NCBI GenBank assembly: GCA_963707745.1
Contig: CAVPRG010000002.1
Span: forward strand, 8,833-72,832
Length of the DNA stretch: 64,000 bases
Source of the DNA: an uncultured Actinomycetota bacterium
GTDB lineage: Bacteria; Actinomycetota; Actinomycetes; Mycobacteriales; Mycobacteriaceae
Direction: 5' to 3'
Made by a program: the position numbers and the translations under genes. The notes beneath the pieces are model-generated. The model searched no databases. It saw only the letters and a list, made by a program, of their open reading frames with translations, and was not told the origin of the DNA. Below, piece after piece: positions 2,670-62,165 of this stretch. Each line of letters opens with the position of its first letter. The first letter of the stretch is position 1.

Positions 2670-3224
2670 CTAGTCCGGGAAGTCCAGCGGGATCCTCAGC
2701 GTCTCGATCGTCGCCGCGAGACCGTCGTATTGTGCTGCGAGCATGCAGAATTCGATGAGCTGGCGACGGTCGTAGTGGTTGCTCATCGCCGCCCAGGTCT
2801 CCGATGACATCGAGCGGGTGATGACGAACTCGTCGGTTGCGGTGATCAAGGTCCGCTGCCGATCGGTGAGGCCTTCAGCATCGGGACCTTCGAAGATCCT
2901 GGCTTGCATTTCGGCGTCGATGCCGCGCGTCCTGGCCAACCTGCGGTGCTGCTGAAGTTCGTATTCGCAGTTGCGGAGGTGCCCGACGCGCAGGATCACC
3001 ACCTCCGCGTCCTTGCGGGACAGCTTTCCGAATCTGAGCAGGACGAGCGAGAACGGGCCCCACAACAGAAACAGCAGCCTGTGCCGGCCCAGCACGCCGA
3101 ACAAGCTGAACCTCGGCGCGCGGATCACGCGGGCGCCGACTTTGGCGATCACCCAGTTGAGCGGGCCCAACTCGCGGAAGTCGCCGGGCGGAATGCGGGC
3201 GGGTGTCGTTTCGGGAGCGCTCAT
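2670..3224 (-). CDS. Carboxymuconolactone decarboxylase (AhpD-like) family protein
   Basis: ORF 2670..3290. The probable start is MSAPETTP at 3224. The translation contains RVGHLRNCEYELQQHRRLA, typical of CMD-family proteins. Confidence 0.75.
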   Translation of the reverse strand: MSAPETTPARIPPGDFRELGPLNWVIAKVGARVIRAPRFSLFGVLGRHRLLFLLWGPFSLVLLRFGKLSRKDAEVVILRVGHLRNCEYELQQHRRLARTRGIDAEMQARIFEGPDAEGLTDRQRTLITATDEFVITRSMSSETWAAMSNHYDRRQLIEFCMLAAQYDGLAATIETLRIPLDFPD

Positions 3225-3234
3225 CCCCGCGAGT

Positions 3235-4650
3235 CTAGGTCTGCTTGACCAGGTAGGGAGACACCGTGCTGCGGTGTTCGTCGAGATCAAGCGCGCGGCC
3301 TAGGGCGGGGAAGGCGCGCTGCGGGCAGTTGTCGCGTTCGCACACGCGGCATCCGGCGCCGATGGGCGTGGCGACCTCACCCGACAAGTCGAGGCCTTCG
3401 GAATAGACGAGCCGGTGTGCGTGCCGCAGCTCGCACCCGAGCCCGATCGCGAACGTCTTGCTGGGCTGGCCGTACCGCGACGCGCGCCGTTCGACGCTGC
3501 GGGCCACCCACATGTAGTGCCTGCCGTCGGGCATCTGCGCGATCTGCACGAGGATCTTGCCGGGGTTGGCGAATGTCTCGTAGACGTTCCACAGCGGACA
3601 GGTACCGCCGCTGGACGAGAAGTGAAAACCCGTGGCGGACTGTCGCTTCGACATGTTTCCTGCACGGTCGACCCGCACGAACGAGAGCGGTACCCCTCGC
3701 GCGGAGGGGCGCTGCAACGTCGAGAGCCGGTGCGCGATCGTCTCGTAGCTCACCGAGTAGAACGCCGACAGCCGCTCCACGTCGTAGCGGAAGCTCTCGG
3801 CGACGTCGTGGAACTGGCGGTACGGCAGTACGGTCGCCGCAGCGAAGTAGTTGGCCAGCCCCAGCCGGGCCAGGGTGCGCGACTCGTCGCTGGTGAACGT
3901 ACCGACTTCGACGAGGCTGTCGATCAGGTCGCCGTACTCCAGGTACGCCAGTTCGGTGGCGAGCCTGAACACGTACTGGCCGGAGGACAGGTGCCCGCCG
4001 ATCTCCAACGTCTTCGTCTCGGGGTCGAACCGGTGCAGCAGGGTATCGCCTAGGTCGGTGCGTTTGACGATGCGGACGCCGTGTACCGCAGTGAGCCGGT
4101 CGGACAGGTCTCGCGCCAAATCGGCGCGGTGCATCCGCATGCGGACGGTGAGTTCCTCGGCGGCGGTGTCGAGTTCGTGCAGATAGTTTTGCCGTTCGTA
4201 GAAGTAGTCGCGGACCTCCTCGTGCGGCATCGTGATCGAGCCGCTGCCGCTGGCGTCGGAGTAGCGTCCCTCGGTCGCCGCCGCCAGCTGGGTGGTGGTC
4301 AGGCGGTAGCGCCGGTGCAGGTTGACCATGGCTCTGGCGAGCGTGGGATGGGTGCTGACGATGTCCGCGAGCTCGGTCTGGTCCACGTCGATGCCGAGGT
4401 CGCGATCCATCGTGACCTCTCGGAGTTCGGCGACCAGTCGGGTGTCGTCGTGGGGCGCGAAGAACGTGGCGTCGACGCCGAACACCTCGGTGATGCGAAG
4501 CAGCACCGCGACGGTCAACGGGCGCACGTCGTGCTCGATCTGGTTGAGGTAGCTCGGGGAGATGTCGAGCATCTGCGCCAGCGCGGCCTGGCTGAAGCCC
4601 CGTTCGCTTCGAAGCTGGCGTACCCGCGATCCGACGAAGGTCTTGGCCAC
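3235..4650 (-). CDS. ramB: XRE-family regulator with C-terminal ImmA/IrrE-like domain, RamB (Rv0465c-like)
   Basis: 471 aa. N-terminal HTH (VGSRVRQLRSERGFSQAALAQMLDISPSYLNQIEHD), long C-terminal domain with a terminal Cys cluster. It sits upstream of icl as in M. tuberculosis. Confidence 0.9.
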   Translation of the reverse strand: MAKTFVGSRVRQLRSERGFSQAALAQMLDISPSYLNQIEHDVRPLTVAVLLRITEVFGVDATFFAPHDDTRLVAELREVTMDRDLGIDVDQTELADIVSTHPTLARAMVNLHRRYRLTTTQLAAATEGRYSDASGSGSITMPHEEVRDYFYERQNYLHELDTAAEELTVRMRMHRADLARDLSDRLTAVHGVRIVKRTDLGDTLLHRFDPETKTLEIGGHLSSGQYVFRLATELAYLEYGDLIDSLVEVGTFTSDESRTLARLGLANYFAAATVLPYRQFHDVAESFRYDVERLSAFYSVSYETIAHRLSTLQRPSARGVPLSFVRVDRAGNMSKRQSATGFHFSSSGGTCPLWNVYETFANPGKILVQIAQMPDGRHYMWVARSVERRASRYGQPSKTFAIGLGCELRHAHRLVYSEGLDLSGEVATPIGAGCRVCERDNCPQRAFPALGRALDLDEHRSTVSPYLVKQT

Positions 4651-44925: not shown

Positions 44926-46233
44926 GTGAGCACTCCCACCCTTCGCCCGACTTCCACCGACATCGCTCGCAAGCGGACCGGCGCTCCCGCTGCGCGGTCA
45001 GAGTCCCCCCAGGCCAAGAGGCTGCTTCTCGCGCGCCATCACGTCGTGGCGCCGTCGCTGCGGGTCGCCGACGCGGCTGCCGGGTCGGTCTTCGGGGCCG
45101 CCCGCCTGCGTGGACCGATCGCCAGGGACAGCATCGCGGGAGTCACCGGGCTCAGTATTGCCACGGTGAACCGCCAGGTCACCGCACTGCTCGACGCCGG
45201 TGTGCTGCGGGAGCGGGCCGATCTCGCGGTATCCGGTGCCATCGGCAGGCCTCGGATCCCCGTCGAGGTCAACCACGAGCCGTTCCTGACGCTCGGCATC
45301 CACATCGGTGCCCGCACCACCAGCATCGTGGCCACCGACCTGCTCGGCCGCACGCTCGACGTGGTGGAGACGTCGACGCCGCAGGGCCCCCAGAACGCCG
45401 CACTGGCCTCGCTGGCCGACAGCGCGCGCCGCTACCTGAGCCGCTGGCACCGGCGCAAGCCCTTGTGGGTCGGAGTCGCCGCGGGCGGCGTGATCGACAC
45501 CGCCACCGGTTACTTCGACCACGCGCGGCTCGGCTGGGCGGACGCGCCCGTCGGACCCGTGCTCGCCGAGGCGCTGGGGCTGCCCGTCTCGGTCGCCTCT
45601 CACGTCGACGCGATGGCAGGTGCCGAACTGTTGCTCGGGGTGCGCCGTTCCCACACGCCGACGGCCACCAGCCTGTACGTGTACGCCCGCGAAACCGTTG
45701 GCTACGCACTGTCGATCGGCGGGCGGGTGCACTCGCCGGCGAGTGGGCCCGGCACCATCGCGACGCTGCCCGCGAAGTCCGAACTGCTGGGAAACACGGG
45801 CCAACTGGAGTCGACGGTCAGCGACGAGGCCGTGCTGATCGCCGCCCGGAGGTTGCGGATCGTCCCGGCCGACGGTCCGTCGTCGACCATCGGAGGCGTG
45901 TTGCGCGCGGCCCGGCAGGGGAACGAGGGCGCGGCGGCGCTGCTGGCCGAGCGGGCCCGCGTGCTCGGGCAGGCCGTCGCGATGCTGCGCGACATGCTCA
46001 ACCCCGACGACCTCGTCGTGGGCGGGCAGGCGTTCACCGAGTACCCCGAGGGCATGGCGCTCGTCGAGGCCGCGTTCGCGGACCGTTCGGTGCTGGCGCC
46101 ACGTGACATCCGGGTGACGGCGTTCGGCAATCGGGTGCAGGAGGCCGGTGCCGGGGTGGTGTCCCTCGGCGGTCTCTACGCCGACCCCGTCGGCGCGATG
46201 CGACGGGCTCAGCGCTCCCAGTCGACCGCCTGA
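44926..46233 (+). CDS. ROK-family transcriptional regulator (Rv0485-like)
   Basis: 435 aa with an N-terminal wHTH (IARDSIAGVTGLSIATVNRQVTALLDAGVL) and a ROK sugar-kinase-like domain. Confidence 0.88.
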   Translation: MSTPTLRPTSTDIARKRTGAPAARSESPQAKRLLLARHHVVAPSLRVADAAAGSVFGAARLRGPIARDSIAGVTGLSIATVNRQVTALLDAGVLRERADLAVSGAIGRPRIPVEVNHEPFLTLGIHIGARTTSIVATDLLGRTLDVVETSTPQGPQNAALASLADSARRYLSRWHRRKPLWVGVAAGGVIDTATGYFDHARLGWADAPVGPVLAEALGLPVSVASHVDAMAGAELLLGVRRSHTPTATSLYVYARETVGYALSIGGRVHSPASGPGTIATLPAKSELLGNTGQLESTVSDEAVLIAARRLRIVPADGPSSTIGGVLRAARQGNEGAAALLAERARVLGQAVAMLRDMLNPDDLVVGGQAFTEYPEGMALVEAAFADRSVLAPRDIRVTAFGNRVQEAGAGVVSLGGLYADPVGAMRRAQRSQSTA

Positions 46234-46260
46234 CGGTCCGCGCGTCGCCTTCAAGTCGCC

Positions 46261-46315
46261 TTTGTGTCGTTTGTTGCGGCGTCATCCTGCGATTCGACGC
46301 AACAAACGACACAAA
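46261..46315. promoter_or_regulatory. 18-bp perfect inverted repeat (hairpin, terminator or operator candidate) between the ROK gene and mshA
   Basis: TTTGTGTCGTTTGTTGCG (46261-46278), a 19-nt spacer, then CGCAACAAACGACACAAA (46298-46315). Exact reverse complements. Confidence 0.7.
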
Positions 46316-46379
46316 CGTGGGTGATCCGAACAGGTGACCGGAACCGGCGCAAGCAGGGCACTACCGGGGCAGTGCAAGG

Positions 46380-47669
46380 ATGGGATTCGTGCGCGTCGCC
46401 GTCTTGTCCGTCCATACCTCGCCGTTGGCACAGCCGGGTACCGGCGACGCGGGCGGGATGAACGTCTACGTGCTGCAGAGCGCGCTCGAGCTGGCGAGCC
46501 GGGGCGTCGACGTCGAGATCTTCACCAGGGCGACGTCGTCGACCGATCCGCCGGTCGTGCGAGTCGCTCCCCGAGTGCTGGTTCGCAACGTCGTCGCTGG
46601 GCCCTTCGAAGGACTGGACAAGAACGACCTGCCCACACAGCTGTGCGCGTTCACCGCCGGAGTGCTGCGCGCCGAGGCCACCCACGAGCCGGGGTACTAC
46701 GACATCGTCCATTCGCACTACTGGCTGTCCGGTCAGGTGGGCTGGCTGGCGCGGGATCGCTGGGCCGTGCCGCTCGTCCACACGGCCCACACGCTCGCCG
46801 CGGTGAAGAACGCCACGCTGGCCGAGGGTGACTCGCCCGAGCCGCCGCTGCGGGCCGTGGGCGAGCAACAGGTGGTCGACGAGGCGGACCGGCTCATCGT
46901 GAACACCGAAGATGAAGCGCGACAACTAGTTTCGCTACATCACGCCGATTCCGACCGCATCGACGTCGTCCATCCCGGCGTCGACCTGACGACCTTCACG
47001 CCCGGCGACAAGCGCGCCGCCCGTGCTGTGCTCGGCATCGCTTCCGACGAAGACGTGGTTGCGTTCGTCGGCCGCATTCAGCCGCTCAAGGCGCCTGACG
47101 TCCTGCTGCGCGCCGCGGCGAAGCTGCCTGGCGTCCGCGTGCTGGTCGTCGGCGGTCCTTCGGGCAGCGGTCTGGCCGCGCCCGACGTGCTGGTTCGGCT
47201 CGCCGACGAATTGGGTATCTCCGACCGGGTGACGTTCCTTCCCCCGCAGCCGCGCGAGCAGCTGGCCAACGTGTACCGCGCCGCAGACCTCGTCGCGGTG
47301 CCGAGCTACTCGGAATCGTTCGGCCTCGTCGCCGTCGAGGCGCAGGCCTGTGGGACGCCGGTGGTGGCCGCCGCGGTGGGCGGGCTGCCGGTGGCGGTGC
47401 GCGACGGCGTCAGCGGGGTGTTGGTGCCCGGACACGACACCGACGAGTGGGCGGCCGCAATCGCCGGCGTGTTCGAGCGTGGGCCGGAGACCATGAGTGC
47501 CGCCGCGGTCGAGCACGCCGCGACGTTCTCCTGGTCGGCGACCGTCGATGCGCTGCTCGCCAGCTACGGTCGGGCGATAGCCGACTATCGAGCCCGCCAT
47601 CAGCAGCGGGACGTCGCGTCGCGGCGCAACGGGCGCAGGTTCTCGCTGCGGCGAGGCATCCGCGCATGA
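46380..47669 (+). CDS. mshA: D-inositol-3-phosphate glycosyltransferase (mycothiol biosynthesis)
   Basis: 429 aa with [35 protein letters not shown] and [24 protein letters not shown]. Confidence 0.95.
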
Positions 47670-48220
47670 GCGATGAGCCGCTTGCGCGAAGAGCAGACGG
47701 CCGCGATGAGGACGCAGCAGGCAGCGTCCATCGAGTCATCGAGGACACCATCAAGGAGCAGGAGCTCGACTACGCGCTCCATCCGAACGAATCCGGCGGG
47801 CTGCCGGGCATCGTCGTCGCGCTGCCGGGCGAGCGGCGTCTGGTCACCAACACGATCCTGTCCGTCAGCGCACATGGGGTGCGCGTCGAGGCGTTCATCT
47901 GCCGCAAGCCCGAGGAGAACTGCGAGGGCGTCTACCGCTACCTGCTGCGGCGCAACCGCAAGATGTACGGCCTCGCCTACACCCTCGACAACCTCGGCGA
48001 CATCTACCTCGTGGGCCGGATGTCACTGCACTCGGTCACGCCCGAGGAGCTCGACCGCATCTTCGGTCAGGTGCTCGATGCCGTCGATCGGGACTTCAAC
48101 GCGTTGCTGGAGTTGGGTTTTCGCACGTCCATCCAGAAGGAATGGAAATGGCGGGTGTCGCGCGGTGAGTCGCTGAAGAATCTGCGTGCCTTCGAGCACC
48201 TGATCGACGACGAGGAATGA
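47666..48220 (+). CDS. Conserved hypothetical protein (Rv0487-like, YbjN-type fold family)
   Basis: ATGA overlap with the mshA stop. 184 aa. Conserved position between mshA and gpm1. Confidence 0.7.
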
Positions 48221-48355
48221 ATCGGCTCCGGCATCGAGTCGGCACTGGCGGTCACCGCCACTGGCACATTCGCGCCGCCAGTTCCGGATCGATGGGTTGG
48301 GGCGTCATGGCGAGCGCACGGGCGGCCGTGCCGTCGCCGTGAGAGGATCTGAGTC

Positions 48356-49096
48356 ATGGCGACCCTTGTCTTGCTCCGTCACGGCGAGAGCGAATGGAAC
48401 GCGCTGAACCTGTTCACCGGCTGGGTCGACGTCGACCTCACCGACAAGGGCAGGACCGAAGCCGCGCGCAGCGGCGAACTGCTCGTCGAACAGGGCGTCC
48501 TACCCGACGTGCTCTACACGTCGCTGCTGCGTCGCGCCATCACCACCGCGCACCTGGCGCTGGACAAGGCCGACCGGCTGTGGATCCCCGTGCACCGCGA
48601 CTGGCGGCTCAACGAGCGGCACTACGGTGCCCTGCAGGGCCTGGACAAGGCCGAGACCAAGGCGAAGTACGGCGACGAACAGTTCATGGCGTGGCGCCGC
48701 AGCTACGACACACCACCTCCCCCGATCGACAAGGGGAGCAAGTACAGCCAGGACGCCGACCCGCGTTACGCCGACATCGGTGGCGGCCCGCTGACCGAGT
48801 GCCTGGCCGACGTGGTCACCCGGTTCGTGCCGTACTACGAACAGACCATCGTCCCGGACCTCGAAGCGGACAAGACGGTACTGATCGCCGCCCACGGCAA
48901 CTCGCTGCGCGCGCTGGTGAAGTACCTGGACGGCATGTCCGACGAGGACGTCGTCGCGCTGAACATCCCGACGGGCATCCCGCTGCGATACGACCTCGAT
49001 GCCGACCTGAAGCCCAAGGTTGCCGGCGGGGTGTACCTGGATCCGGAAGCCGCGGCGGCGGGCGCCGCAGCGGTTGCTTCGCAGGGCGCGAAGTAG
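48356..49096 (+). CDS. gpmA: 2,3-bisphosphoglycerate-dependent phosphoglycerate mutase
   Basis: [20 protein letters not shown] and [10 protein letters not shown] motifs. Confidence 0.95.
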
Positions 49097-49228
49097 CCGC
49101 GCGGGGCCCGCGCAGGCGAATTGTTGGTGAACTCGGATGAACACGGGCCAAACTCCTGGATTTGGGTATGTGACATGTCCCGAATTGGCCGCACGCTGCT
49201 GGGATGACGTTCACCGGAAACGTACGAT

Positions 49229-50419
49229 TTGCCCGTGAGTGTGCTAACCGCACTGCTGCTGACGGCAGTCGTGGCGCTGCTCGCGCTCGCGGTCGGCGGG
49301 ATACTCGGAATCGTCATCACTCCGCGCCTCGCCGAACACCGGCGGCGTCGGTCCGTGGACCAGGACGGCATCACCGTTTCGGAGATGCTGCAGCGCATCG
49401 TGTCGTTGGCTCCGGTGGGGATCGTGGTCGTCGACACCTACCGTGACGTCGTCTACACCAATGACCGGGCCCACGAGCTGGGGTTGGTCCGCGACCGCCT
49501 GCTCGACGACCGTGCCTGGACCGCGGCCGAGCGCACGCTGGCCACGGGTGAGGACGTGGAGGTCGACCTGGCCCCCGTCAAACGCCAGAATCCGGGTCGG
49601 TCCGGGCTGTCGGTGCGGGGTCACGTTCGACTGCTCACCGAGGACGATCGCCGCTTTGCCGTCGTCTACGTCGACGACCAGTCCGAACACGCCCGCATGG
49701 AGGCCACGCGCCGCGACTTCGTGGCCAACGTCAGCCACGAGCTGAAGACGCCGGTGGGCGCCATGGGGGTGCTCGCCGAGGCATTGCTCGCCTCGACCGA
49801 CGACGCCGTGACAGTCGGCCGGTTCGCCGAGATGATGGTCACCGAATCCAATCGGCTGGCCAACATGGTCGGCGAGCTCATCGAGCTGTCGCGGCTGCAG
49901 GGCGCCGAGCCGCTGCCCGACCTGGGGGCCGTCGACGTCGACACCGTGGTAGCGGAAGCCCTGTCCCGCTACAAGGTGGCCGCCGACAACGCCGACATCG
50001 CGGTCACCACCGACGCTCCGACGGGGTATCGCGTGCTCGGCGATCAGCCGCTGTTGGTCAGCGCGCTGGCAAACCTCGTCTCGAACGCAATTGCATACTC
50101 GCCCAACGGGTCTCCGGTATCGATCAGCCGGAGGAGGCGGGGAGACAACGTCGAGATCGCCGTCACCGACCGTGGTATCGGTATCGCGCGGGCCGACCAG
50201 GAGCGGGTTTTCGAACGGTTCTTCCGCGTCGACAAGGCGCGCTCCCGGGCCACCGGCGGGACCGGGCTCGGGCTGGCCATCGTGAAGCACGTGGCGGCCA
50301 ATCACAACGGATCCATCCGGCTGTGGAGTCAGCCGGGTACCGGGTCGACGTTCACTTTGTCGATACCGGCGTACCCCGACACCGACGACGAATTCGACGA
50401 ACGGTCGGATAACCAATAA
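49229..50419 (+). CDS. senX3: Sensor histidine kinase SenX3
   Basis: TM segment, PAS-like region, H-box [12 protein letters not shown], and N, G1 and G2 boxes ([23 protein letters not shown]). Followed by regX3. Confidence 0.93.
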
Positions 50420-50434
50420 GGAGGCGTCAGACCG

Positions 50435-51121
50435 ATGACCAGTGTGCTGATCGTGGAGGACGAGGAGTCCCTGGCCGATCCCCTGGCATTTCTGCTGCGC
50501 AAGGAGGGCTTCGAGGCGACGGTTGTCGCGGACGGTCCGTCGGCCTTGGCCGAATTCGAGCGCTCCGGTGCTGACATCGTGCTGCTGGATCTGATGCTGC
50601 CGGGAATGAGCGGGACCGATGTCTGTAAGCAGCTTCGTTCGCGGTCGAGTGTGCCCGTGATCATGGTCACCGCCCGCGACAGCGAGATCGACAAGGTTGT
50701 CGGGCTCGAGCTCGGTGCCGACGACTACGTCACCAAGCCGTACTCGGCGCGCGAGCTGATCGCCCGAATTCGCGCGGTGCTACGTCGCGGTGCGGACACC
50801 GACGACTCCGGCATCGGGGATGGGGTGTTGGAGGCCGGACCGGTGCGGATGGACGTCGAACGGCACATCGTTTCAGTCAATGGCGAAGCGATCACATTGC
50901 CGCTCAAGGAGTTCGACCTACTCGAGTACCTGATGCGCAATAGTGGCCGAGTGCTGACGCGGGGCCAGCTCATCGACCGGGTGTGGGGCGCCGACTACGT
51001 GGGTGACACCAAGACGCTGGACGTCCACGTCAAGCGGCTGCGCAGCAAGATCGAATCCGATCCGGCCAACCCCGTTCACCTCGTAACGGTTCGCGGGCTG
51101 GGCTACAAGCTGGAGGGCTGA
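50435..51121 (+). CDS. regX3: Response regulator RegX3 (OmpR/PhoB family)
   Basis: Receiver domain (VLIVEDEES...DIVLLDLMLPG) plus a winged-helix output domain (LTVRGLGYKLE). Confidence 0.95.
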   Translation: MTSVLIVEDEESLADPLAFLLRKEGFEATVVADGPSALAEFERSGADIVLLDLMLPGMSGTDVCKQLRSRSSVPVIMVTARDSEIDKVVGLELGADDYVTKPYSARELIARIRAVLRRGADTDDSGIGDGVLEAGPVRMDVERHIVSVNGEAITLPLKEFDLLEYLMRNSGRVLTRGQLIDRVWGADYVGDTKTLDVHVKRLRSKIESDPANPVHLVTVRGLGYKLEG

Positions 51122-51137
51122 CTCGACGACTGAGTTG

Positions 51138-51932
51138 TCACTCAGCAGCGCGCGTCGCCGGGTGGATCGCGATGAGCCCCAATGACTTTCGCCGCTCACA
51201 CATGGCCGCGAGTTCGGCGTACGCCTTCTCGCCGAGCAGCTCGGTGAGCTCGGGAGCGTAGGACTGCCACACCTGGCGCGCTCCGACATGGGCCGCGGGA
51301 TCGCCCGTGCAGTACCAGTGCAGATCTGCGCCGCCCTCACCCCAACCGCGACGGTCGTATTCGGTGATGGTGGTGCGCAGGATCTCCGACCCGTCGGGCC
51401 GGGTGATCCACTCCTGGCTGCGGCGGATGGGGAGCTGCCAGCAGACGTCGGGTTTCATGGTCAGGGGTTCGACGCCCAGCTTGAGCGCCTTGCTGTGCAG
51501 GGCGCACCCGATACCGCCCTCGAACCCCGGCCGGTTGAGGAAGATGCAGGCGCCCTTGTACTTTCGGGTCCGGTAGTTGGGTTTGCCGTCGTACTCGTCA
51601 AGCTCCAGGTAGCCCTTGCGGCCCAGTCCCTTCTCCCGGAACTGCCAGTCGTCGTCGGTCAGCTTCGTGACGGCGTCGTCGAGACGCGCTCGGTCGTCGT
51701 CGTCGGACAGGAACGCACCGTGGCTGCAGCAGCCGTCGTCGGGTCGCCCCGCGACGGTGCCCTGGCAGGCGGGCGTGCCGAAAACGCATGTCCAGCGCGA
51801 CAACAGCCACGTCAAGTCCGCGGCGATCAAGTGCTCGGGGTTGTCGGGGTCGTAGAACTCCACCCACTCCCGGGCGAAGTCCAGTTCCACCTCTCCGCGT
51901 TGGGAGTTCTTGCTCTTCCCGCTAGCGCTCAT
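51138..51932 (-). CDS. Conserved Cys-rich hypothetical protein (Rv0495c-like)
   Basis: 264 aa ([12 protein letters not shown]...GCCSHGAF...GACIFLN...GCALH). Divergent from ppx1, as in H37Rv. Confidence 0.78.
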
Positions 51933-52070
51933 CGCCGATCCCGTTCACAAAACCATTCTTGCTCTTCGCGCAAGCGCTCACGCCGCCCTTCGCTCTTCGC
52001 GCAAGCGCTCATCGCCGCCCTTCGCTCTTCGCGCAAGCGCTCATCGCGCCGATCCCGTTCACAAAAACCA
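51912..52070 (-). repeat. Tandem array (31/32-bp period) of the ATGAGCGCTTGCGCGAAGAGC cassette upstream of, and including, the Rv0495c-like start codon
   Basis: Plus-strand copies of GCTCTTCGCGCAAGCGCTCA(TC) at 51961, 51992 and 52024. The gene's own 5' end (51912-51932) matches the core at 19 of 21 positions. Flanking direct repeats GCGCTCATCGC(G)CGATCCCGTTCACAAAA(A)CC lie at 51925 and 52038. Confidence 0.9.
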
Positions 52071-52096
52071 ACGGTAGACCCGATAACGTGGGCTGC

Positions 52097-53083
52097 GTGC
52101 GATTGGGCGTGCTCGACGTGGGCAGCAACACAGTTCATCTGCTCGTGGTCGACGCGCGCCGCGGGGGTCACCCCACGCCAATGAGTTCCACGAAGGCTTC
52201 GCTGCGACTGGCGGAGGCCATCGACGGCTCCGGCAAGCTGACGCGCAAAGGCGCCGACAAGCTGATCAACACGATCGACGAATTCGCCAAGATCGCCGCG
52301 AGTTCCGGCTGTGCCGAGCTGATGGCGTTCGCCACCTCGGCCGTGCGGGACGCCACCAACTCCGAGGATGTGCTCGCCCGCGTCCGCGCCGACACCGGGG
52401 TGGCGTTGCGCGTGCTGTCGGGGGTCGACGAGTCCAGGCTGACGTTCCTTGCGGTCCGTCGCTGGTACGGGTGGAGCGCGGGTCGGATCATCAACATCGA
52501 CATCGGCGGCGGGTCGCTCGAGTTGTCCAGCGGCGTCGACGAGGAGCCAGAGATCGCGTTGTCGCTGCCGCTGGGTGCGGGCCGGCTCACCAGGGAGTGG
52601 CTGCCCGACGATCCACCGGGACGCCGCCGCGTGGCGATGCTGCGGGAATGGCTGTCCACCGAACTGGCCGACGCGGGCGCGAAGGTCTTGGAGACCGGGG
52701 TGCCCGATCTGACCGTGGCGACCTCGAAGACTTTCCGCTCGCTGGCGCGACTCACCGGCGCCGCGCCCTCCGGGGCAGGACCCCGTGTGAAGAGGACACT
52801 GACAGCTGCGGGGTTGAGGCAACTCATTGCCTTCATCTCCAGGATGACCGCGGCGGACCGAGCTGAGTTGGAAGGGGTCAGCGCTGAAAGGGCGCCACAG
52901 ATCGTGGCCGGCGCCCTGGTGGCGGAAGCGAGCATGCGAGCGCTTTCGATCGACACAGTGGACATTTGCCCGTGGGCGTTGCGGGAGGGGCTGATTTTGC
53001 GGAAACTCGACAGCGAGGCTGACGGAACTGCCTTCGTCGAGGCGTTCGCGGGCTTAGCCAGGGCCAGAGGCAACAGACCATGA
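52097..53083 (+). CDS. ppx1: Exopolyphosphatase (Ppx/GppA family)
   Basis: GTG at 52097 gives [20 protein letters not shown], the canonical Ppx N-terminus. The longer ORF from 51959 runs through the repeat array. Confidence 0.9.
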
Positions 53084-54333
53084 CAGAACCAGAAGACACC
53101 CACAGCAGCACCAGACCGATCTCGGTCGCCGAGCTGCTGGCCAGAAATGGCAGTATCGGCTCCCCACCGGTCGGAGGGCGCCGGCGCCATCGCCGGGGCA
53201 ACGCCGATTCGGTGACGGTCGCCGAACTGACCGGCGAGATCCCGATCATCAGAGACTCGACGCCCGTCGTGAAGGTCGACGAGCCGGTGCAAACAAGCGG
53301 CTCCGCCGCTGAGGCCGTCGAGCCGGTGTCGACCAACGGTGTCGCCGAGCACGTCGAATCCCTCGAGCTCGTGGAACCGGTGGAAGTCGACGAACACGTC
53401 GAAGTCGACGAACCGGTGGAAGTCGACGAACACGGTGGAAGTCGACGAACCGGTGGAGACCGATGAACCAGTCGCACCGGTCGAGGACGCGGTCGAGCAG
53501 GCCGACGTCGAGGCCGAGGTGGTCGAGGACGCGGTCGAGCAGGCCGACGTCGAGGCCGAGGAAGTCGAGGACGCGGTCGAGCAGGCCGACGTCGAGGCCG
53601 AGGTGGTCGAGGAGGCTTCCGTCACGGCGCCCGAGCCGGAGTTGACCGAAGCCGAGGTCGACTACGAAGCTCATCTCGAGCAGCGGGACGCCGAGGTCGA
53701 TCCGATCGAGTTCGCCGCCCCGCCGCGTCGCCCCCGGGTGACCCCGCCCGCGTTCTCCGCCCTCGCGGGCGGCGCCGAGCAGATGAGCCCGGATCCCGTC
53801 GTCGACGACGGTGAGATGGGGTCCGACGTCGACCTCATCGAGTCGCTCGAGGGCGAGGCGCCGCTCGCCGCCGCCGACGACGAGGAAGGCACGCAAGAGG
53901 CCTTCGTGGTTCCGTCCTACCTGCGCTCCAACTCCGACACGTTGTTCGGTGGTCAGTCCGTGGCCGACGACCTCGCCCGCCGCGGCCCGAGGCCCGGACC
54001 GGAGGACATCGACCTCGGCGAGGACGCCAGGCCGGACGTGGACGAGCCGGAGACCGTAAAAGCCCCGCGGCTCCGCCTTCATGTTGCGGCGTGTGGGTGG
54101 TCGTGCAGTGCATCCTCGCCGTCGTCTTCGGTGCGGGCTTGTTCATCGCCTTCGATCTGCTGTGGAAGTGGAACCACATCGTTGCGCTGGTGTTGTCGGT
54201 GCTCGTCATCCTCGGGCTCGTCATCGGCGTGCGCGTGGTTCGCAAGACCGAGGACATCGGCAGCACGCTCATCGCGGTGGCGGTTGGCGCCTTGGTCACA
54301 TTGGGACCCCTGGTCCTGCTGAAGACGCACTGA
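53080..54333 (+). pseudogene. Acidic-repeat membrane protein (Rv0497-like) with two compensating frame shifts
   Basis: The N-terminus ([24 protein letters not shown], frame of 53080) and the C-terminal 2-TM domain ([44 protein letters not shown], 54091..54333) share one frame. The plausible acidic middle section (ORF 53339..54322 frame, VEDAVEQADVEAE...[24 protein letters not shown]) is in another frame. Confidence 0.75.
53480..53605 (+). repeat. 3 x 42-bp coding tandem repeat (VEDAVEQADVEAEV) preceded by 18/36-bp [12 protein letters not shown] repeats
   Basis: Units start at 53480, 53522 and 53564. The shorter repeats occupy about 53371-53470. Confidence 0.9.
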
Positions 54334-54353
54334 CGCGCAAAAATAAACCCCCA

Positions 54354-55199
54354 GTGCGCCCTGCCATCAAGGTCGGTTTGTCGACAGCCTCGGTATATCC
54401 CTTGAGGACCGAGGCTGCCTTCGAGTACGCGGCGCGTCTTGGCTACGACGGCGTCGAACTCATGGTGTGGGCCGAAACGGTCAGTCAGGACGTTGCGGCG
54501 ATCACCAAACTGTCGGACGACTATGGGGTTCCGGTGCTCAGCGTGCATGCGCCGTGCCTGTTGATCTCGCAACGGGTCTGGGGTGCCAACCCCATTCCCA
54601 AACTCGAGCGCAGCGTGCGTGCCGCAGAGGAACTCGGCGCCCAGACGGTGGTGGTGCATCCGCCGTTCCGGTGGCAACGCCGGTATGCGGAGGGGTTCGC
54701 CGACCAGGTCGCCAAACTGGAGGCGTCCAGCGACGTCTTGGTCGCAGTCGAGAACATGTTTCCGTTCCGCGCGGACCGCATCTTCGGAACGGGTCAGCCG
54801 TCTATCCAGCGGATGCGCAAGCGCGGTGGGACACCCGGTGTGGCGATCTCGGCGTTCGCCCCGTCCTTCGACCCACTCGACGGGGGTCATGCCCATTTCA
54901 CACTGGACCTGTCGCATTCGGCCACCGCAGGCACCGATGCCATCGACATGGCCCGTCGGATGGGCGACGGTCTCGTCCATCTGCACCTGTGCGATGGCAG
55001 CGGAGCCTCCACCGACGAACACCTCGTCCCCGGACGCGGGACCCAGCCGACCGTCGAGATCTGTCAGATGCTCGCGGCGAATGACTTCTCCGGCCACGTC
55101 ATTCTCGAGGTGACGACGTCGCGCGCGCGGACCGCGGCCGAGCGCGAGGAGCTGCTGGTCGAATCGCTCGAGTTCGCGCGTGCCCACCTGCTGCGCTAG
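54354..55199 (+). CDS. Sugar phosphate isomerase/epimerase (xylose-isomerase-like TIM barrel, Rv0498-like)
   Basis: In-frame GTG at 54354 (VRPAIKVGLSTASVYP). Translation includes GYDGVELMVW, VVHPPF, VAVENM and LHLCDG. Confidence 0.82.
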   Translation: MRPAIKVGLSTASVYPLRTEAAFEYAARLGYDGVELMVWAETVSQDVAAITKLSDDYGVPVLSVHAPCLLISQRVWGANPIPKLERSVRAAEELGAQTVVVHPPFRWQRRYAEGFADQVAKLEASSDVLVAVENMFPFRADRIFGTGQPSIQRMRKRGGTPGVAISAFAPSFDPLDGGHAHFTLDLSHSATAGTDAIDMARRMGDGLVHLHLCDGSGASTDEHLVPGRGTQPTVEICQMLAANDFSGHVILEVTTSRARTAAEREELLVESLEFARAHLLR

Positions 55200-55272
55200 A
55201 GGACGACGATGATCGCTTGCGCGAAGAGCAGAGGATGACGATGAGCGCTTGCGCGAAGAGCAGAGGATGACG
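55200..55272 (+). repeat. 2 x 32-bp tandem cassette (AGGA(C/T)GACGATGA(T/G)CGCTTGCGCGAAGAGCAG) leading directly into the thioesterase-like gene start
   Basis: Units start at 55200 and 55232. A third, truncated unit at 55264 is the real gene's SD and start (AGGATGACGATGACC). Confidence 0.9.
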
Positions 55273-56154
55273 ATGACCGACTCCACCCGGTTCGCCGACG
55301 CGATGGCGCTGACGAGGGTTTCGTCCAACGAAGCCGTCAGCGTCTTCGAGGGCGTGCTCAACAAGCACTGGACCATCGGCGAGAAGGTGCACGGCGGCGC
55401 GATGCTGGCGTTGAGCGCCAAGGCGGCACGGACCGCGCTGTCCAGTGACGACGGCGAGGACGACCCGACTGGCGATGAGCGCTTGCGCGAAGAGCAGCTG
55501 ATCGGAATACAGCCGATCGCGGTGTCGGGCAGCTTCCTGTGGGCTCCTGACCCCGGGGCGATGAGGGTGGTATGCACGGTGCGCAAGCGGGGGCGGCGGG
55601 TGAGCCTGGTCGACGTCGAACTCGGTCAGGGCGGGAAGACCGCCGTGCGGTCGGTGATGACCTTGGCCGACCCGGAACACGACGTCGCGCCCCTGCTGTC
55701 GGTGAATCCGGTGGTGGCGCTGATGACACCCGATCCGCCGCCTGGGCTGGAGCCGATCGGCCCCGGACATCCGATGGCCGACATCGTGCACCTCGCGCAC
55801 GGGTGCGACATCCGGCCGTCACTGACGACGATGGCCCCGCGTGCTGACGGCGGTCCGCCCGTAATCGAATATTGGGTGCGCCCGCGGGAGGGCTCACCGG
55901 ACGTCTTGTTCGCGTTGTTGTGCGGCGACGTCTCGGCTCCGGTGACGTTCGGCGTCAACCGGTTTGGCTGGGCGCCGACGGTTCAGCTGACGGCCTACCT
56001 TCGCGGCATACCTGCCGACGGTTGGTTGCGAGTGATGTGCACCACGATGCAGATCGGCCAAGACTGGTTCGACGAGGACCACCTCGTCGTGGATTGCGAG
56101 GGCCGCATCATCGTGCAGTCCCGCCAACTCGCATTGGTGCCGCCCGCGCCGTAG
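55267..56154 (+). CDS. Thioesterase-like superfamily protein (double hotdog, TesB-like, Rv0499-like)
   Basis: Start MTMTDSTRFADAM. Translation includes GVLNKHWTIGEKVHGGAMLAL. It carries an in-frame copy of the repeat cassette at 55456-55497. Confidence 0.8.
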   Translation: MTMTDSTRFADAMALTRVSSNEAVSVFEGVLNKHWTIGEKVHGGAMLALSAKAARTALSSDDGEDDPTGDERLREEQLIGIQPIAVSGSFLWAPDPGAMRVVCTVRKRGRRVSLVDVELGQGGKTAVRSVMTLADPEHDVAPLLSVNPVVALMTPDPPPGLEPIGPGHPMADIVHLAHGCDIRPSLTTMAPRADGGPPVIEYWVRPREGSPDVLFALLCGDVSAPVTFGVNRFGWAPTVQLTAYLRGIPADGWLRVMCTTMQIGQDWFDEDHLVVDCEGRIIVQSRQLALVPPAP

Positions 56155-56181
56155 CGAATCCGGACGTGCAATGCTTGCCCC

Positions 56182-57048
56182 GTGGCCAGAATTGCGATCA
56201 TCGGAGGCGGAAGCATAGGCGAGGCATTGCTTTCCGGACTGCTGCGCGCAGGGCGTCAGACCAAGGACTTGGTGGTCGCCGAGAAGGACCCCAACCGGTC
56301 GAGGTACCTGGCCGAGACCTACTCGGTACTGATGACTTCGGTCGCCGACGCCGCCGAGAATGCCACCTACATCGTCGTCGCAGTCAAGCCTGCAGACGTC
56401 GAGTCGGCGCTCATCGACATCGCCGAAGCCGCCGCGCGCGCCGAGAACTCCAGCGCAGAACAGGTTTTCATCACCGTGGCGGCGGGGGTCAGCACGGCCT
56501 ACTACGAATCGAAGCTTCCTGCGGGGGCGCCGGTCGTCCGCGTCATGCCCAACGCTCCCGTCGTCGTCGGTGGAGGAGTCAGCGCGCTTGCGCGCGGGCG
56601 CTTCGCGACGGAGCAGCAGCTCAAGGAGGTGGCGGCGATCTTCGACGCGGTCGGTGGGGTCCTGACGGTGCCCGAGTCCCAACTCGACGCCGTCACCGCC
56701 GTGTCCGGCTCGGGTCCCGCCTACTTCTTCCTGATGGTCGAGGCGCTCGTCGACGCCGGGGTCGCGGCGGGGCTGCCTCGCGGGGTGGCCACGGATCTGG
56801 TGACTCAGACGATGGCCGGTTCGGCGGCGATGTTGCTGGAACGCCTCGACGAGCAGCACGTGGCAGGAGACGCAGCAATTGGTTCGGCCACGGATACCAG
56901 CGCGGCGCAGTTGCGCGCCATCGTCACGTCGCCCGGTGGCACCACCGCCGCTGGGCTGCGGGAACTCGAGCGGGGTGGCCTGCGCGCGGCGGTGGCCGAT
57001 GCGGTGGCCGCCGCAAAAACACGCTCTGAGCAGCTAGGAATTACATAA
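56182..57048 (+). CDS. proC: Pyrroline-5-carboxylate reductase
   Basis: IAIIGGGSIGEA, MPNAPVVVGGGVSAL, SGSGPAYFFLMVEAL and VTSPGGTTAAGL motifs. Confidence 0.95.
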   Translation: MARIAIIGGGSIGEALLSGLLRAGRQTKDLVVAEKDPNRSRYLAETYSVLMTSVADAAENATYIVVAVKPADVESALIDIAEAAARAENSSAEQVFITVAAGVSTAYYESKLPAGAPVVRVMPNAPVVVGGGVSALARGRFATEQQLKEVAAIFDAVGGVLTVPESQLDAVTAVSGSGPAYFFLMVEALVDAGVAAGLPRGVATDLVTQTMAGSAAMLLERLDEQHVAGDAAIGSATDTSAAQLRAIVTSPGGTTAAGLRELERGGLRAAVADAVAAAKTRSEQLGIT

Positions 57049-57194
57049 GAGTAGTTCATGAAATTTCAAACGGATTACCCCACACCCGTCGCAATAACCA
57101 CATCTGCCACGCTATTCTCCTCGTTGTAAGCATGCGTTGGTGCCAATGGTGGGGAAGCCGCTGGGACTGGCCGTGCCTGATGGATTGGGTTGCG

Positions 57195-57458
57195 ATGACG
57201 TCTATGAACGGGCCATCGGCGCGCGATTCCGGCAGCGGGAAATCGGCGCGTGACGCCGCGGCTGGCGACAGTCAACCGCCACGGGCTCAATTTCTCACCG
57301 TCGCGGAAGTGGCGAGCCTCATGCGGGTGAGCAAGATGACTGTCTATCGATTGGTCCACAACGGAGAGCTGCCCGCGGTCCGGGTCGGTCGGTCATTCCG
57401 GGTGCACGCCAAGGCGGTTCACGACCTGCTCGAGACGTCGTACTTCGACGCCGGTTAG
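57195..57458 (+). CDS. Excisionase/MerR-superfamily HTH DNA-binding protein (Rv0500A-like)
   Basis: FLTVAEVASLMRVSKMTVYRLVHNGELPAVRVGRSFRV is the helix-turn-helix_17 signature. The start is taken at the ATG at 57195. Confidence 0.85.
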   Translation: MTSMNGPSARDSGSGKSARDAAAGDSQPPRAQFLTVAEVASLMRVSKMTVYRLVHNGELPAVRVGRSFRVHAKAVHDLLETSYFDAG

Positions 57459-57636
57459 GCCTCCTCTCCGCGGGCGCAGACGCGCACGATCCCGCGTGTG
57501 GTGAGCCGTCCGTCGGGCCGCGTGCTCCCGACGCGCTTTTCGTTTTGCTGGGCCAGGCCGGTAAGGTAGCCGGGTTGGTTCAGAAGGATTCAGAGTCCTT
57601 CAATGCGTCTCGTCAAAGTCTTAGGTAGCGGAGTTC

Positions 57637-57738
57637 ATGGGTTCAGTCATCAAGAAGCGTCGCAAGCGCATGTCGAAGAAGAAGCACCGCAAGCTGCTTC
57701 GTCGCACGCGGGTGCAGCGCAGAAAACTTGGCAAGTAG
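57637..57738 (+). CDS. Small ribosomal protein bS22 (Rv0500B-type, 33 aa)
   Basis: Not in the ORF track because it is shorter than 60 aa. ATG at 57637 follows GGTAGCGGAG. The translation [33 protein letters not shown] matches the actinobacterial bS22 peptide as I remember it. Confidence 0.9.
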
Positions 57739-57778
57739 CGTCCAGCTTCAGCCCAGCCACTGACGCTAGGCTGACGGG

Positions 57779-58891
57779 ATGGATGCTGACGGCCGCTCCG
57801 GAGATCGGCCCCAGCCGGGTTCGGGAGGTTCTGATTCCAAGGACACCGTCCACTACCCCAAGGTCGTGCTCGTCACCGGCGCCTGCCGGTTCCTCGGTGG
57901 GTATCTGACCGCCAGACTGGCGCAAGACCCGCTGATCAACCACGTCATCGCGGTCGACGCGATCGCGCCGAGCAAGGATCTGCTCCGGCGGATGGGCCGA
58001 GCCGAGTTCGTCCGTGCCGACATCCGGAACCCGTTCATCTCCAAAGTGATCCGAAACGGCGAAGTCGACACCGTCGTGCACGCGGCGGCAGCCTCCTACG
58101 CACCGCGCTCAGGCGGCCGGGCGGCGCTGAAGGAACTCAACGTGATGGGCGCGATGCAGTTGTTTGCTGCCTGCCAGAAGGCTCCGTCGGTGCGTCGGGT
58201 CGTGTTGAAATCCACTTCCGAGGTGTACGGCTCGAGCCCGAAGGACCCTGTGCTGTTCACCGAGGACGGCCACTCCCGCCGGCCCCCGGGCGAGGGATTT
58301 GCGCGCGACAGCATCGACATCGAGGGTTACGCGCGGGGCCTGGCCCGGCGTCGGCCCGACATCGCGGTCACGATACTGCGGCTGGCCAACATGATCGGAC
58401 CTGCGATGGACACCGCGCTGTCGCGCTACCTCGCCGGGCCGGTTGTGCCGTCGGTACTCGGACACGACCCGCGCCTGCAGCTGCTGCACGAACAGGACGC
58501 GCTCGGTGTCCTCGAACGGGCGACCGTCGCGGGTCGGGCGGGCACCTTCAACGTCGGTGCCCCCGGCATCATCATGATGTCCCAGGCGATCCGTCGGTCC
58601 GGGCGCCTCGAGCTTCCGGTGCCGCGTTCAGCGCTGTCCCTGGTGGATTCGCTGAGACGTGCAACGCGCTACACCGAGCTGGATCGCGAGCAGCTGAACT
58701 ACTTGAGTTACGGTCGGGTCATGGACACCGCGCGCATGCGCAAGGACCTGGGTTATATCCCGAAGTGGACGACGACGGAGGCGTTCGACGATTACGTGCG
58801 AGGTCGTGGATTGACGCCGATCATCGACCCGAGCTGGGTAATCTCGATGGAGAAGCGCGCGGTGTCTGCAGCGCAGCGTTGGGGGCGCTAG
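57779..58891 (+). CDS. galE2: NAD-dependent epimerase/dehydratase (GalE2, Rv0501-like)
   Basis: VLVTGACRFLGGYL Rossmann motif. 370 aa. Conserved position. Confidence 0.85.
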   Translation: MDADGRSGDRPQPGSGGSDSKDTVHYPKVVLVTGACRFLGGYLTARLAQDPLINHVIAVDAIAPSKDLLRRMGRAEFVRADIRNPFISKVIRNGEVDTVVHAAAASYAPRSGGRAALKELNVMGAMQLFAACQKAPSVRRVVLKSTSEVYGSSPKDPVLFTEDGHSRRPPGEGFARDSIDIEGYARGLARRRPDIAVTILRLANMIGPAMDTALSRYLAGPVVPSVLGHDPRLQLLHEQDALGVLERATVAGRAGTFNVGAPGIIMMSQAIRRSGRLELPVPRSALSLVDSLRRATRYTELDREQLNYLSYGRVMDTARMRKDLGYIPKWTTTEAFDDYVRGRGLTPIIDPSWVISMEKRAVSAAQRWGR

Positions 58892-61651: not shown

Positions 61652-61694
61652 GTATCAACAGTAGGTCACGGAATACTGGTCGCAGATGGGCACT

Positions 61695-61916
61695 CGGCGG
61701 GCAGGAGCGTAGCGACATGGGGAACCAGCATCGGCGGGCAGGAGCGTAGCGACATGGGGAACCAGCATCGGCGGGCAGGAGCGTAGCGACATGGGGAACC
61801 AGCATCGGCGGGCAGGAGCGTAGCGACATGGGGAACCAGCTTCGGCGGGCAGGAGCGTAGCGACATGGGGAACCAGCTTCGGCGGGCAGGAGCGTAGCGA
61901 CATGGGGAACCAGCAC
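61695..61916 (+). repeat. 6 x 37-bp perfect-period tandem repeat. Each unit is an SD + ATG + 10-codon mini-ORF, and the last unit supplies the start of the glutaredoxin-like gene
   Basis: Units of CGGCGGGCAGGAGCGTAGCGACATGGGGAACCAGC(AT/TT/AC) start at 61695, 61732, 61769, 61806, 61843 and 61880. Confidence 0.95.
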
Positions 61917-62165
61917 AGCGTGATCTTGCTGACACGCGCCGGGTGCGGCCTGTGTGACCGGGCGAAGGACCAGTTGACCCACCTGTCGAAGGAGCTCGGC
62001 TTCGACCTCGGTACCACGGACGTGGACGCCGCGGCGGCCGCCGGAGACCCTGCGATGCGGACCGAGTACGGCGACCGGCTGCCCGTCGTGCTGCTCGACG
62101 GGCGGGAGCACAGCTACTGGGAGGTCGACGAGGCCCGGCTGCGCACCGATCTGGGTGCTAAGTAG
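61902..62165 (+). CDS. Glutaredoxin-like protein (DUF836, Rv0508-like)
   Basis: 87 aa with a CGLC redox motif (VILLTRAGCGLCDRA). Directly upstream of hemA. Confidence 0.85.
   Translation: MGNQHSVILLTRAGCGLCDRAKDQLTHLSKELGFDLGTTDVDAAAAAGDPAMRTEYGDRLPVVLLDGREHSYWEVDEARLRTDLGAK

Follow-up and report, generated by a model that had tools for sequence, protein, structure and literature searches.

The 64-kb stretch of DNA analysed here (hereafter the window), from a member of the Mycobacteriaceae, carries a short tandem array between an Rv0498-like gene and the gene for an Rv0499-like acyl-CoA thioesterase. The array consists of 2.5 copies of a 32-nucleotide (nt) unit, which we found dispersed over many other genomes. 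We consider it probable that the unit acts as a miniature mycobacterial interspersed repetitive unit (MIRU), that is, as a translational relay built from chained small open reading frames (ORFs). Tandem Repeats Finder, run on the window, gave a period of 32, 2.5 copies and 95% matches for positions 55198–55276. Together with our own reading of the sequence, this recovered the tandem 32-bp units that an earlier, sequence-only reading had placed after the TAG stop codon at 55197–55199. In each unit, a 22-nt core, GATGAGCGCTTGCGCGAAGAGC, is followed by a purine-rich linker of 10 nt that resembles a Shine-Dalgarno sequence. From 55197 to 55280 the junction reads TAG, AGGACGAC, GATGATCGCTTGCGCGAAGAGC, AGAGGATGAC, GATGAGCGCTTGCGCGAAGAGC, AGAGGATGAC and GATGACCGAC, with the following parts:

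54360–55199, plus strand: Rv0498-like gene, a xylose-isomerase-like TIM barrel (AP_endonuc_2, Pfam 1.7e-25), with its TAG stop at 55197–55199.
55200–55207, plus strand: left copy of the junction/linker sequence, AGGACGAC, recognized by reading the sequence.
55208–55239, plus strand: unit 1, with the core GATGATCGCTTGCGCGAAGAGC (one mismatch, GATGATC) at 55208–55229 and the linker AGAGGATGAC.
55240–55271, plus strand: unit 2, with the exact core GATGAGCGCTTGCGCGAAGAGC at 55240–55261 and the linker AGAGGATGAC.
55272–55276, plus strand: truncated third unit, GATGA followed by CC, which holds the ATG at 55273.
55273–56154, plus strand: Rv0499-like acyl-CoA thioesterase (4HBT_3 and 4HBT_3C by Pfam; 2002 homologues), the gene fed by the array.

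The left copy and the preceding TAG together give TAGAGGACGAC, a near-duplicate of the linker AGAGGATGAC. The same position reads TAGAGGAGCGTGATGAC at the empty orthologous site of locus L129. The left copy, AGGACGAC, may serve as a Shine-Dalgarno-like site for mini-ORF 1, which runs from 55209 to 55238 (MIACAKSRG, TGA at 55236–55238). Mini-ORF 2 begins at 55235 (or 55241) and ends at 55270, with a TGA at 55268–55270 that overlaps the ATG at 55267. The mini-ORFs and the ATGA overlaps at 55235–55238 and 55267–55270 are as the sequence-only reading described them. That reading had also taken the ATG at 55267 as the thioesterase start and the truncated third unit as the source of its Shine-Dalgarno sequence and start codon, and on both points we came to a different view. 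The start is more likely the ATG at 55273 (MTDSTRF): orthologues begin with MT[DN]STRF, the database protein P0001 starts there and is identical to the thioesterase from 55273 onward, and the closest orthologue, L199, has GGATCAC where the window has GGATGAC. The Shine-Dalgarno sequence and start codon are probably those of the native junction, as the empty site of L129 reads cgcTAGAGGAGCGTGATGACT, i.e., the window junction minus the array. The relay is kept with either ATG, through the ATGA overlap or across a 2-nt gap.

To map the family, the exact 20-mer TGAGCGCTTGCGCGAAGAGC was scanned in one genome per species. It was found at at least 117 loci in dozens of genomes, each with its own linker, which upheld the proposal of a dispersed element rather than a local duplication. 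Of the 80 loci listed, 44 were from Mycobacterium, Mycolicibacterium and Mycobacteriaceae, 23 from unclassified Actinomycetota metagenome-assembled genomes (MAGs), six from Jatrophihabitans-like bacteria, two from Nakamurella and five from other phyla. Three of these last five (L020, L053, L077) have flanks without the usual family context and look like chance matches or mis-binned contigs; the other two (L004, L045) have the usual cga flank. A CGA before the 20-mer is almost invariant, though it lies outside the search pattern. Carrier species among the matches include Mycolicibacterium parafortuitum, M. litorale, M. novocastrense, M. hippocampi and M. lacusdiani. In Jatrophihabitans, Nakamurella and related MAGs, the core forms the 3′ module of an ATGA-bounded element of ~83 nt (51 + 32).

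The arrays analysed numbered 134, with one to five units each. The spacing between units was 32 nt in 46 of 54 cases and 33 nt in six, with single cases of 31 and 35 nt. The linker is identical inside one array and different among loci. It nevertheless shows a family-wide consensus, [A/C/G]GA[G/A]G[G/A]CA[C/G]C followed by GATGA[G/C], which makes it a component of the unit rather than a duplicated stretch of each target. Copy number varies at orthologous junctions (one unit in L001, five in L050 and three in L096; one versus two in L022/L112). Within one species, a single comparison revealed no such variation: the window and L198, another sample of the same species, both have two units and differ by two single-nucleotide polymorphisms. 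A search of phages gave no match, a search of plasmids gave one weak match, and Rfam gave no relevant match at 45000–58000 (E ≤ 1). Literature, exact-sequence and peptide searches returned no report of the unit, and keyword searches led to MIRU papers only. The 32-nt repeat family is thus widespread in soil mycobacteria and related actinobacteria and apparently undescribed.

Around the arrays, coding strand and phase were called from the periodicity of the G + C content at third codon positions (GC3), and chains were followed from the ATG of the first unit. Co-oriented genes were present on both sides of 72 arrays; the downstream gene was co-oriented in 91 and opposite in 22. Of the upstream genes in the 95 arrays where this gene is co-oriented, 46 stop at the TGA within the first GATGA and another eight at a TGA that immediately precedes it (TGATGA), which makes 54/95 in total. 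The downstream start was typically an ATG or GTG 11 nt past the last core. These counts bear out the enrichment at gene starts and stop–start junctions that the sequence-only reading had raised. A typical unit opens with GATGA, in which the TGA is overlapped by the ATG, and continues with an 11-codon mini-ORF (MSACAKS and four variable residues) and the linker, up to the next GATGA. The last ATG(A) of the array is the start of the downstream gene. In total, 73 chains reached a long GC3-rich ORF, 53 of them by ATGA or GTGA overlaps alone, showing that the chaining first noticed at the thioesterase junction is family-wide.

Unit length depends on context, with 32 nt between genes and 33 nt inside coding sequences. 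A length of 32 is 2 mod 3, and therefore each unit shifts the frame by one base and the TGA of each mini-ORF overlaps the next ATG. In L030, three 33-nt units form one 31-codon ORF. Gene callers often start the downstream gene at a TTG inside the core, giving LREEQ... N-termini (P0008–P0011, P0021, P0028, P0034, P0092, P0093). In M. tuberculosis, the RegX3 calls P0121–P0124 run through the MIRU ORFs and have 245–277 amino acids instead of 227. Repeats of this kind cause systematic misannotation of start codons.

We propose that a ribosome ending the upstream gene or a mini-ORF would restart at the overlapping ATG and in this way be passed on to the thioesterase start. Any number of units could be chained without breaking such a termination–reinitiation relay, because the frame slips by one base with every unit (2 mod 3) and any unit number would thus be tolerated. 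With ribosomes handed on, an insertion or a change in copy number would be nearly neutral for downstream expression. The arrays would lengthen and shorten by slippage, and their spread may involve start-codon contexts of the type (C)GATGA(GC).

The window itself was searched with the 22-mer, allowing up to three mismatches, which gave seven matches versus 0.00 expected (100 shuffles). A search of the 64 kb with a profile built from 178 units yielded eight significant copies, spread over four sites, and no others. Apart from the junction array, the copies and a leader duplication next to one of them are:

47672–47704, plus strand: 33-nt unit in the YbjN-like gene, with a 23-nt core (47672–47694, one extra C) and the linker AGACGGCCGC.
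51912–51933, minus strand: core-like copy (20/22 bases), ATGAGCGCTAGCGGGAAGAGC, read as MSASGKS, the start and first seven codons of the Rv0495c-like gene.
51934–51955, minus strand: second copy of a 5′-leader segment, TGGTTTTGTGAACGGGATCGGC, the first copy being at 52070–52046.
51961–52045, minus strand: three-unit array in the 5′ region of the Rv0495c-like gene, with cores at 52045–52024, 52013–51992 and 51982–51961 and the linker GAAGGGCGGC.
55474–55495, plus strand: solo core in the thioesterase coding sequence, in-frame D-E-R-L-R-E-E-(Q), from the sequence read and the profile.

The sequence-only reading had described the two arrays, including the differing linker of the one in opposite orientation, and had missed the copies at 55474–55495 and 47672–47694. 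All four sites lie within 8 kb (47.67–55.5 kb) around senX3-regX3, with none in the other 56 kb; this clustering could come from local spread or from chance. Confinement to an 8-kb stretch, which would have spoken for a local repeat, is hence seen within the window only, the family being dispersed over many genomes. The array is preceded by mshA, the YbjN-like gene, gpm, senX3, regX3, the Rv0495c-like gene, ppx, an Rv0497-like gene and the Rv0498-like gene, and followed by the thioesterase gene and proC. The region is the Rv0486–Rv0500 syntenic block of Mycobacteriaceae, and synteny of the Rv0498-like gene is kept in L199, L200 and L202–L211.

The unit at 47672–47704 is an in-frame insertion of 11 codons after codon 2 of the YbjN-like gene, with GATGAG on both sides. 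The native ATGA overlap between the mshA stop and the ybjN start is at 47666–47669, and empty orthologous junctions have a plain GTGA/ATGA overlap (gcgcGTGAcg or gcgcATGAcc). The mshA/ybjN junctions of L203 (~3215–3285) and L210 carry a different insert of 65 nt, ATGAGCGAAGCTCGCGAGCGAATCATCGGCACTGAATGCGGTAACCGAGGCTGCGAGGAAACCGC, with ATGA on both sides and a length of 2 mod 3; this insert is missing from the related genome L202.

The minus-strand array is located in the leader of the Rv0495c-like gene, in the divergent intergenic region shared with ppx. Its third unit is one base short, and its chain leads from an 11-codon to a 27-codon mini-ORF and on to the Rv0495c-like gene. A leader segment of 22–25 nt, TGGTTTT(T)GTGAACGGGATCGGC, is directly duplicated and brackets the array. 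Orthologues of the Rv0495c-like gene start with VTDVHPGEVELDF, and conservation sets in only from GEVELDFAR onward. The N-terminus is thus specific to this lineage, in which the gene seems to owe its start codon and first residues to a copy of the element.

The solo core at 55474 sits in a hypervariable loop of the thioesterase, where other species carry the tandem insertion GGQERSDSGNG. In many species this loop, after ...AKAAR.AL, holds zero to three tandem in-frame units of 11–12 residues (GQERSDSGNG/KERSDRGIEYGG; alignment of P0003–P0116, DNA of L200 ~2190–2230). Judging from the alignment, the loop is a hot spot for the insertion of short repeats.

To follow the junction through related lineages, we used 80 orthologous thioesterase loci obtained by a protein-based scan of metagenome contigs. 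Twenty syntenic regions from assembled genomes (L202–L221), collected via RegX3, served as empty-site references for the four sites of the window only, and none of them had a copy at any of these sites. Most Rv0498/thioesterase junctions are empty, including those of L129, L118 and L202–L211. Occupied junctions were found in L125 and L126 (two units), L127 and L128, L159 (one unit), L200 (two units) and L198. L199, the closest orthologue with 88% protein identity, has a truncated remnant, TAGAGG followed by GCGCGAAGAACAGAGGATCACGATGACC, and L133 and L131 resemble deletion derivatives, for example TGATGAGCGC followed by CCACATG. Linkers from different species are related to one another here (AGAGGATGAC, AGACGATGGT, AAAGGATGGT, AGATGACGGT), which speaks for a single old insertion that later was duplicated, decayed or was lost. 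The junction array is present with diverged linkers in orthologues of 76–88% protein identity, and as remnants in others. It is ancient and no recent arrival, and its founding insertion would predate the split of several Mycobacteriaceae lineages. Orthologous junctions are occupied, empty or remnant; identical arrays at all of them, which the sequence-only reading had named as a sign of ancient fixed sequence, are not what we found.

At the same junction, other loci carry unrelated short tandem repeats: a 33-nt repeat, tgcggacgagaggagcayccgagtcta, and the 15-nt repeats agcccgaatgtccc and agcctgaattcccc (L134/L138, L136, L157/L169/L178/L185). By comparison of these loci, the Rv0498/thioesterase intergenic spot is one that repeatedly gains short tandem repeats.

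The conservation of the core was assessed on loci sampled by protein homology, so that intact cores were not favoured. Seven thioesterase loci from six lineages share an exact 33-nt in-frame insertion at a second site within the coding sequence (GGC GAT GAG CGC TCG CGC GAA GAG CAG AGA ACC; GDERSREEQRT), with the core variant GCTCGCG (L118 2819, L200 2379, L159 2822, L179 2420, L180 1134, L185 625, L193 499). Neither the window nor L199 has an insertion at this second site; L118 and L200 are identical over the region. The core is identical in all seven (22/22), the flanking coding DNA is 72–89% identical and the adjacent linker 36–91%. Third codon positions are invariant in seven of eight cases in the core versus 19 of 78 in the flanks (Fisher p = 8e-4). 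The junction cores of L200, L125, L127 and L159 are likewise identical to each other, with linkers 40–80% and the upstream gene 71–76% identical. The site-specific variants GCTCGCG (coding copy) and GAAGAAC (junction) occur side by side in the same genomes and are kept from species to species, which makes genome-wide homogenisation unlikely. The simplest reading of these patterns would be purifying selection on the nucleotide sequence of the core.

This conservation is one of several points that weigh against the relay as a full account of the element. A neutral relay leaves unexplained why the core is kept without a single change, synonymous positions included, across six lineages at a site inside a coding sequence where no relay is needed. 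Moreover, we infer the actual reinitiation along the chain from its anatomy alone. In the window, the upstream TAG stop (55197–55199) sits 9 nt before the ATG of the first mini-ORF and does not overlap it. With respect to MIRUs, the sequence similarity of the 32-nt unit to the 77-nt MIRU is marginal overall, and at 32 nt (33 nt in coding sequences) the unit is below the 46–101 bp given for MIRU units, at 41 loci, in a review on typing (PMC3914561).

The core could instead be a sequence-specific RNA or DNA signal, which might for example bind a protein or RNA or enhance reinitiation, and be kept by selection, with the relay being secondary. Its 100% identity at the orthologous coding site, the invariant third positions, the identical junction cores amid diverged linkers and upstream genes and the coexisting site variants are what such a signal would leave behind. 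However, there is no known partner, the flanking genes are functionally unrelated, and at many orthologous sites the element is absent or was deleted with nothing obvious in its place. Folding of one unit, two units, the coding copy and the MIRU gave z-scores of −0.2 to +0.5 against shuffles, thus no significant RNA structure. The 55.2-kb array had no inverted repeat and no dyad symmetry, a search for promoter-like sites found none, terminator-like sites occurred at chance frequency, and no Rfam family was recovered. We hold a selected signal with a secondary relay to be unlikely. A wider version of the idea, in our view speculative and also improbable, would make the core the conserved cis-acting signal of a phylogenetically broad, hitherto unrecognised system of portable translational-coupling cassettes in Actinomycetota. 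MIRUs, the 32-nt unit, a 37-nt ‘QERSD’ element (see below) and the 65- and 83-nt elements would be its modular relatives. A trans-acting factor or the ribosome would recognize the core for reinitiation and/or propagation, and copies would occasionally donate start codons and N-termini to genes, as seems to be the case for the Rv0495c-like gene. A REP-like hairpin or an attenuator was considered separately and rejected, with folding z-scores near 0 and no inverted repeat at 55.2 kb.

Dispersal, strong conservation and multiple copies in many genomes would also fit a non-autonomous mobile element. Such an element would resemble repetitive extragenic palindromes (REP) and bacterial interspersed mosaic elements (BIME), miniature inverted-repeat transposable elements (MITEs) or palindrome-associated transposable elements (PATEs), with a transposase recognizing a hairpin or terminal repeats and the position at junctions being incidental. 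Flank duplications do exist at some sites (15 nt at 55200, 12 nt in L093, 10 nt in L021, and GATGAG at 47672/47705), but their length is inconsistent and they are absent at many loci, e.g., L003 and L014. A simple model of target-site duplication was rejected on these grounds: it fits 55200, L021 and L093 and not L003 and L014, and no single duplication length emerges. The copies are direct and not inverted, have no inverted repeats, terminal inverted repeats or stable hairpin, and are strictly in phase with stop and start codons. They are not found in phages, have the one weak plasmid match, and have no associated transposase gene in the window. All this makes a transposase-driven origin very unlikely. 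Still less probable, to the point where we give it hardly any weight, is that the peptide of the mini-ORF (MSACAKS...) is a functional product, or that the repeat is a locally duplicated 5′ end of a gene. It is true that the mini-ORFs are open and follow a Shine-Dalgarno-like sequence, and one copy is the real N-terminus of the Rv0495c-like protein. Yet the last four codons vary freely between loci, the mini-ORF frame is no less invariant at synonymous positions than at the rest, copies inside genes are read in another frame (DERLREEQ), and the at least 117 unrelated loci exclude local duplication. The translational relay of MIRU type is the reading that we prefer.

Two further sets of repeats were found in the window. 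Six tandem 37-nt units (TCGGCGGGCAGGAGCGTAGCGACATGGGGAACCAGCA) occupy 61694–61915, and after a gap of 4 nt a glutaredoxin-like gene starts with the GTG at 61920. Each unit has a 10-codon ATG...TAG ORF and, in another frame, encodes GQERSDMGN, the motif of the GGQERSDSGNG insertions in orthologous thioesterases. The 37-nt unit and the M. tuberculosis MIRU share GCAG(G)AGCGTAGCGA (12 of 2000 shuffles reach the score). The array looks like a second family of short dispersed repeats. At 53374–53613, in-frame tandem repeats of 18, 36 and 42 nt in the Rv0497-like gene encode acidic repeats and are unrelated to the 32-nt family.

Reduced to GATGA boundaries, one mini-ORF and a Shine-Dalgarno-like tract, the 32-nt unit is a minimal model for the proposed relay of ribosomes by repeats. 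The family is abundant in culturable, fast-growing mycobacteria and thus offers a tractable system, in which the 32-nt intergenic and 33-nt coding forms could separate translational from sequence-specific constraints. That the core is conserved unusually strongly from one orthologous site to the next suggests a function nobody has looked for.

The obvious known analogue of this architecture are the MIRUs, on which the present family bears directly; the sequence-only reading had not drawn this link. MIRUs are in worldwide use for typing M. tuberculosis strains, while to our knowledge their origin, spread and function are still unexplained. They were reportedly described by Supply et al. in 1997 (Mol Microbiol 26:991), for example as 77-bp units between senX3 and regX3. 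According to a 2025 review, MIRUs insert at start codons, with their ORF coupled at −4 (PMC12548453). We compared the 32-nt unit with one MIRU locus, the senX3-regX3 spacer of M. tuberculosis (L201), which has 3.1 copies of a 77-nt MIRU, GATGACCTGCGCCGACGACGATGCAGAGCGTAGCGATGAGGTGGGGGCACCACCCGCTTGCGGGGGAGAGTGGCGCT. There, senX3 ends with ...cGATGA, each unit opens with GATGA, regX3 starts at the last ATGA, and 77 is 2 mod 3. Both kinds of repeat form short dispersed tandem arrays in Mycobacteriaceae, with variable copy number, between co-oriented genes and oriented with transcription. Both have GATGA-bounded units, a small ORF overlapping the stop and start of its neighbours (ATGA, −4) and a length of 2 mod 3 (77 vs 32), and GCGATGAG and CGCTTGCG are common to the two.

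Beyond these motifs, the local alignment of the 32-mer with the 77-nt MIRU (CGAAGA-GCAGAGGGCAGCGATGAG over CGACGATGCAGAGCGTAGCGATGAG) had a score reached by three of 2000 shuffles, and its global alignment with the first 34 nt of the MIRU a score reached by two of 5000 (p ~4e-4). The global alignment with the last 43 nt was not significant (789/5000 shuffles), despite the common CGCTTGCG, and neither was that of the 72–87-nt composite (~83 nt; three loci) with the MIRU (143–200/3000 shuffles, p ~0.05–0.07). The 3.8 kb of the M. tuberculosis locus L201 contained no copy of the 32-nt unit. The 32-nt family differs further from MIRUs in being present in fast-growing and environmental mycobacteria, in Jatrophihabitans and in Nakamurella, and as 33-nt in-frame insertions in genes. 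By its architecture the 32-nt element would work like a MIRU; the alignments are no more than suggestive of common descent.

Bicistronic designs and upstream-ORF coupling cassettes are similar in that a short ORF ends with ATGA or TGATG at the gene start and contains the Shine-Dalgarno sequence; the role proposed for this short leader ORF is to bring in ribosomes whatever the local mRNA structure (PMC12548453). These are, however, single engineered or gene-specific leaders, whereas the unit described here is a natural, repeated and dispersed module that can be concatenated. REP/BIME with their RAYT, and MITEs such as Correia and ERIC, are also small multi-copy repeats between genes, often in operons and co-transcribed, but they are defined by palindromes or terminal inverted repeats. 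In the present family none were found, and the units are in phase with codons. A CRISPR array (clustered regularly interspaced short palindromic repeats) was rejected as well: the linker has 10 nt and is identical between the units of an array, whereas CRISPR arrays have repeats of 23–47 nt and unique spacers of similar length. The copies inside genes are comparable to coding variable-number tandem repeats, such as the 57-bp in-frame repeat in leuA of M. tuberculosis (PMC2704214), where units with a multiple of three bases are tolerated as loop residues. Here this applies to 47672, to the orthologous thioesterases and probably to 55474. The leuA repeat is specific to its locus, whereas in the 32-nt family one dispersed core is found in intergenic as well as coding positions. 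Elements of this kind are known; new are a unit shorter than any described MIRU, its presence beyond the Mycobacteriaceae and its occurrence also inside genes.

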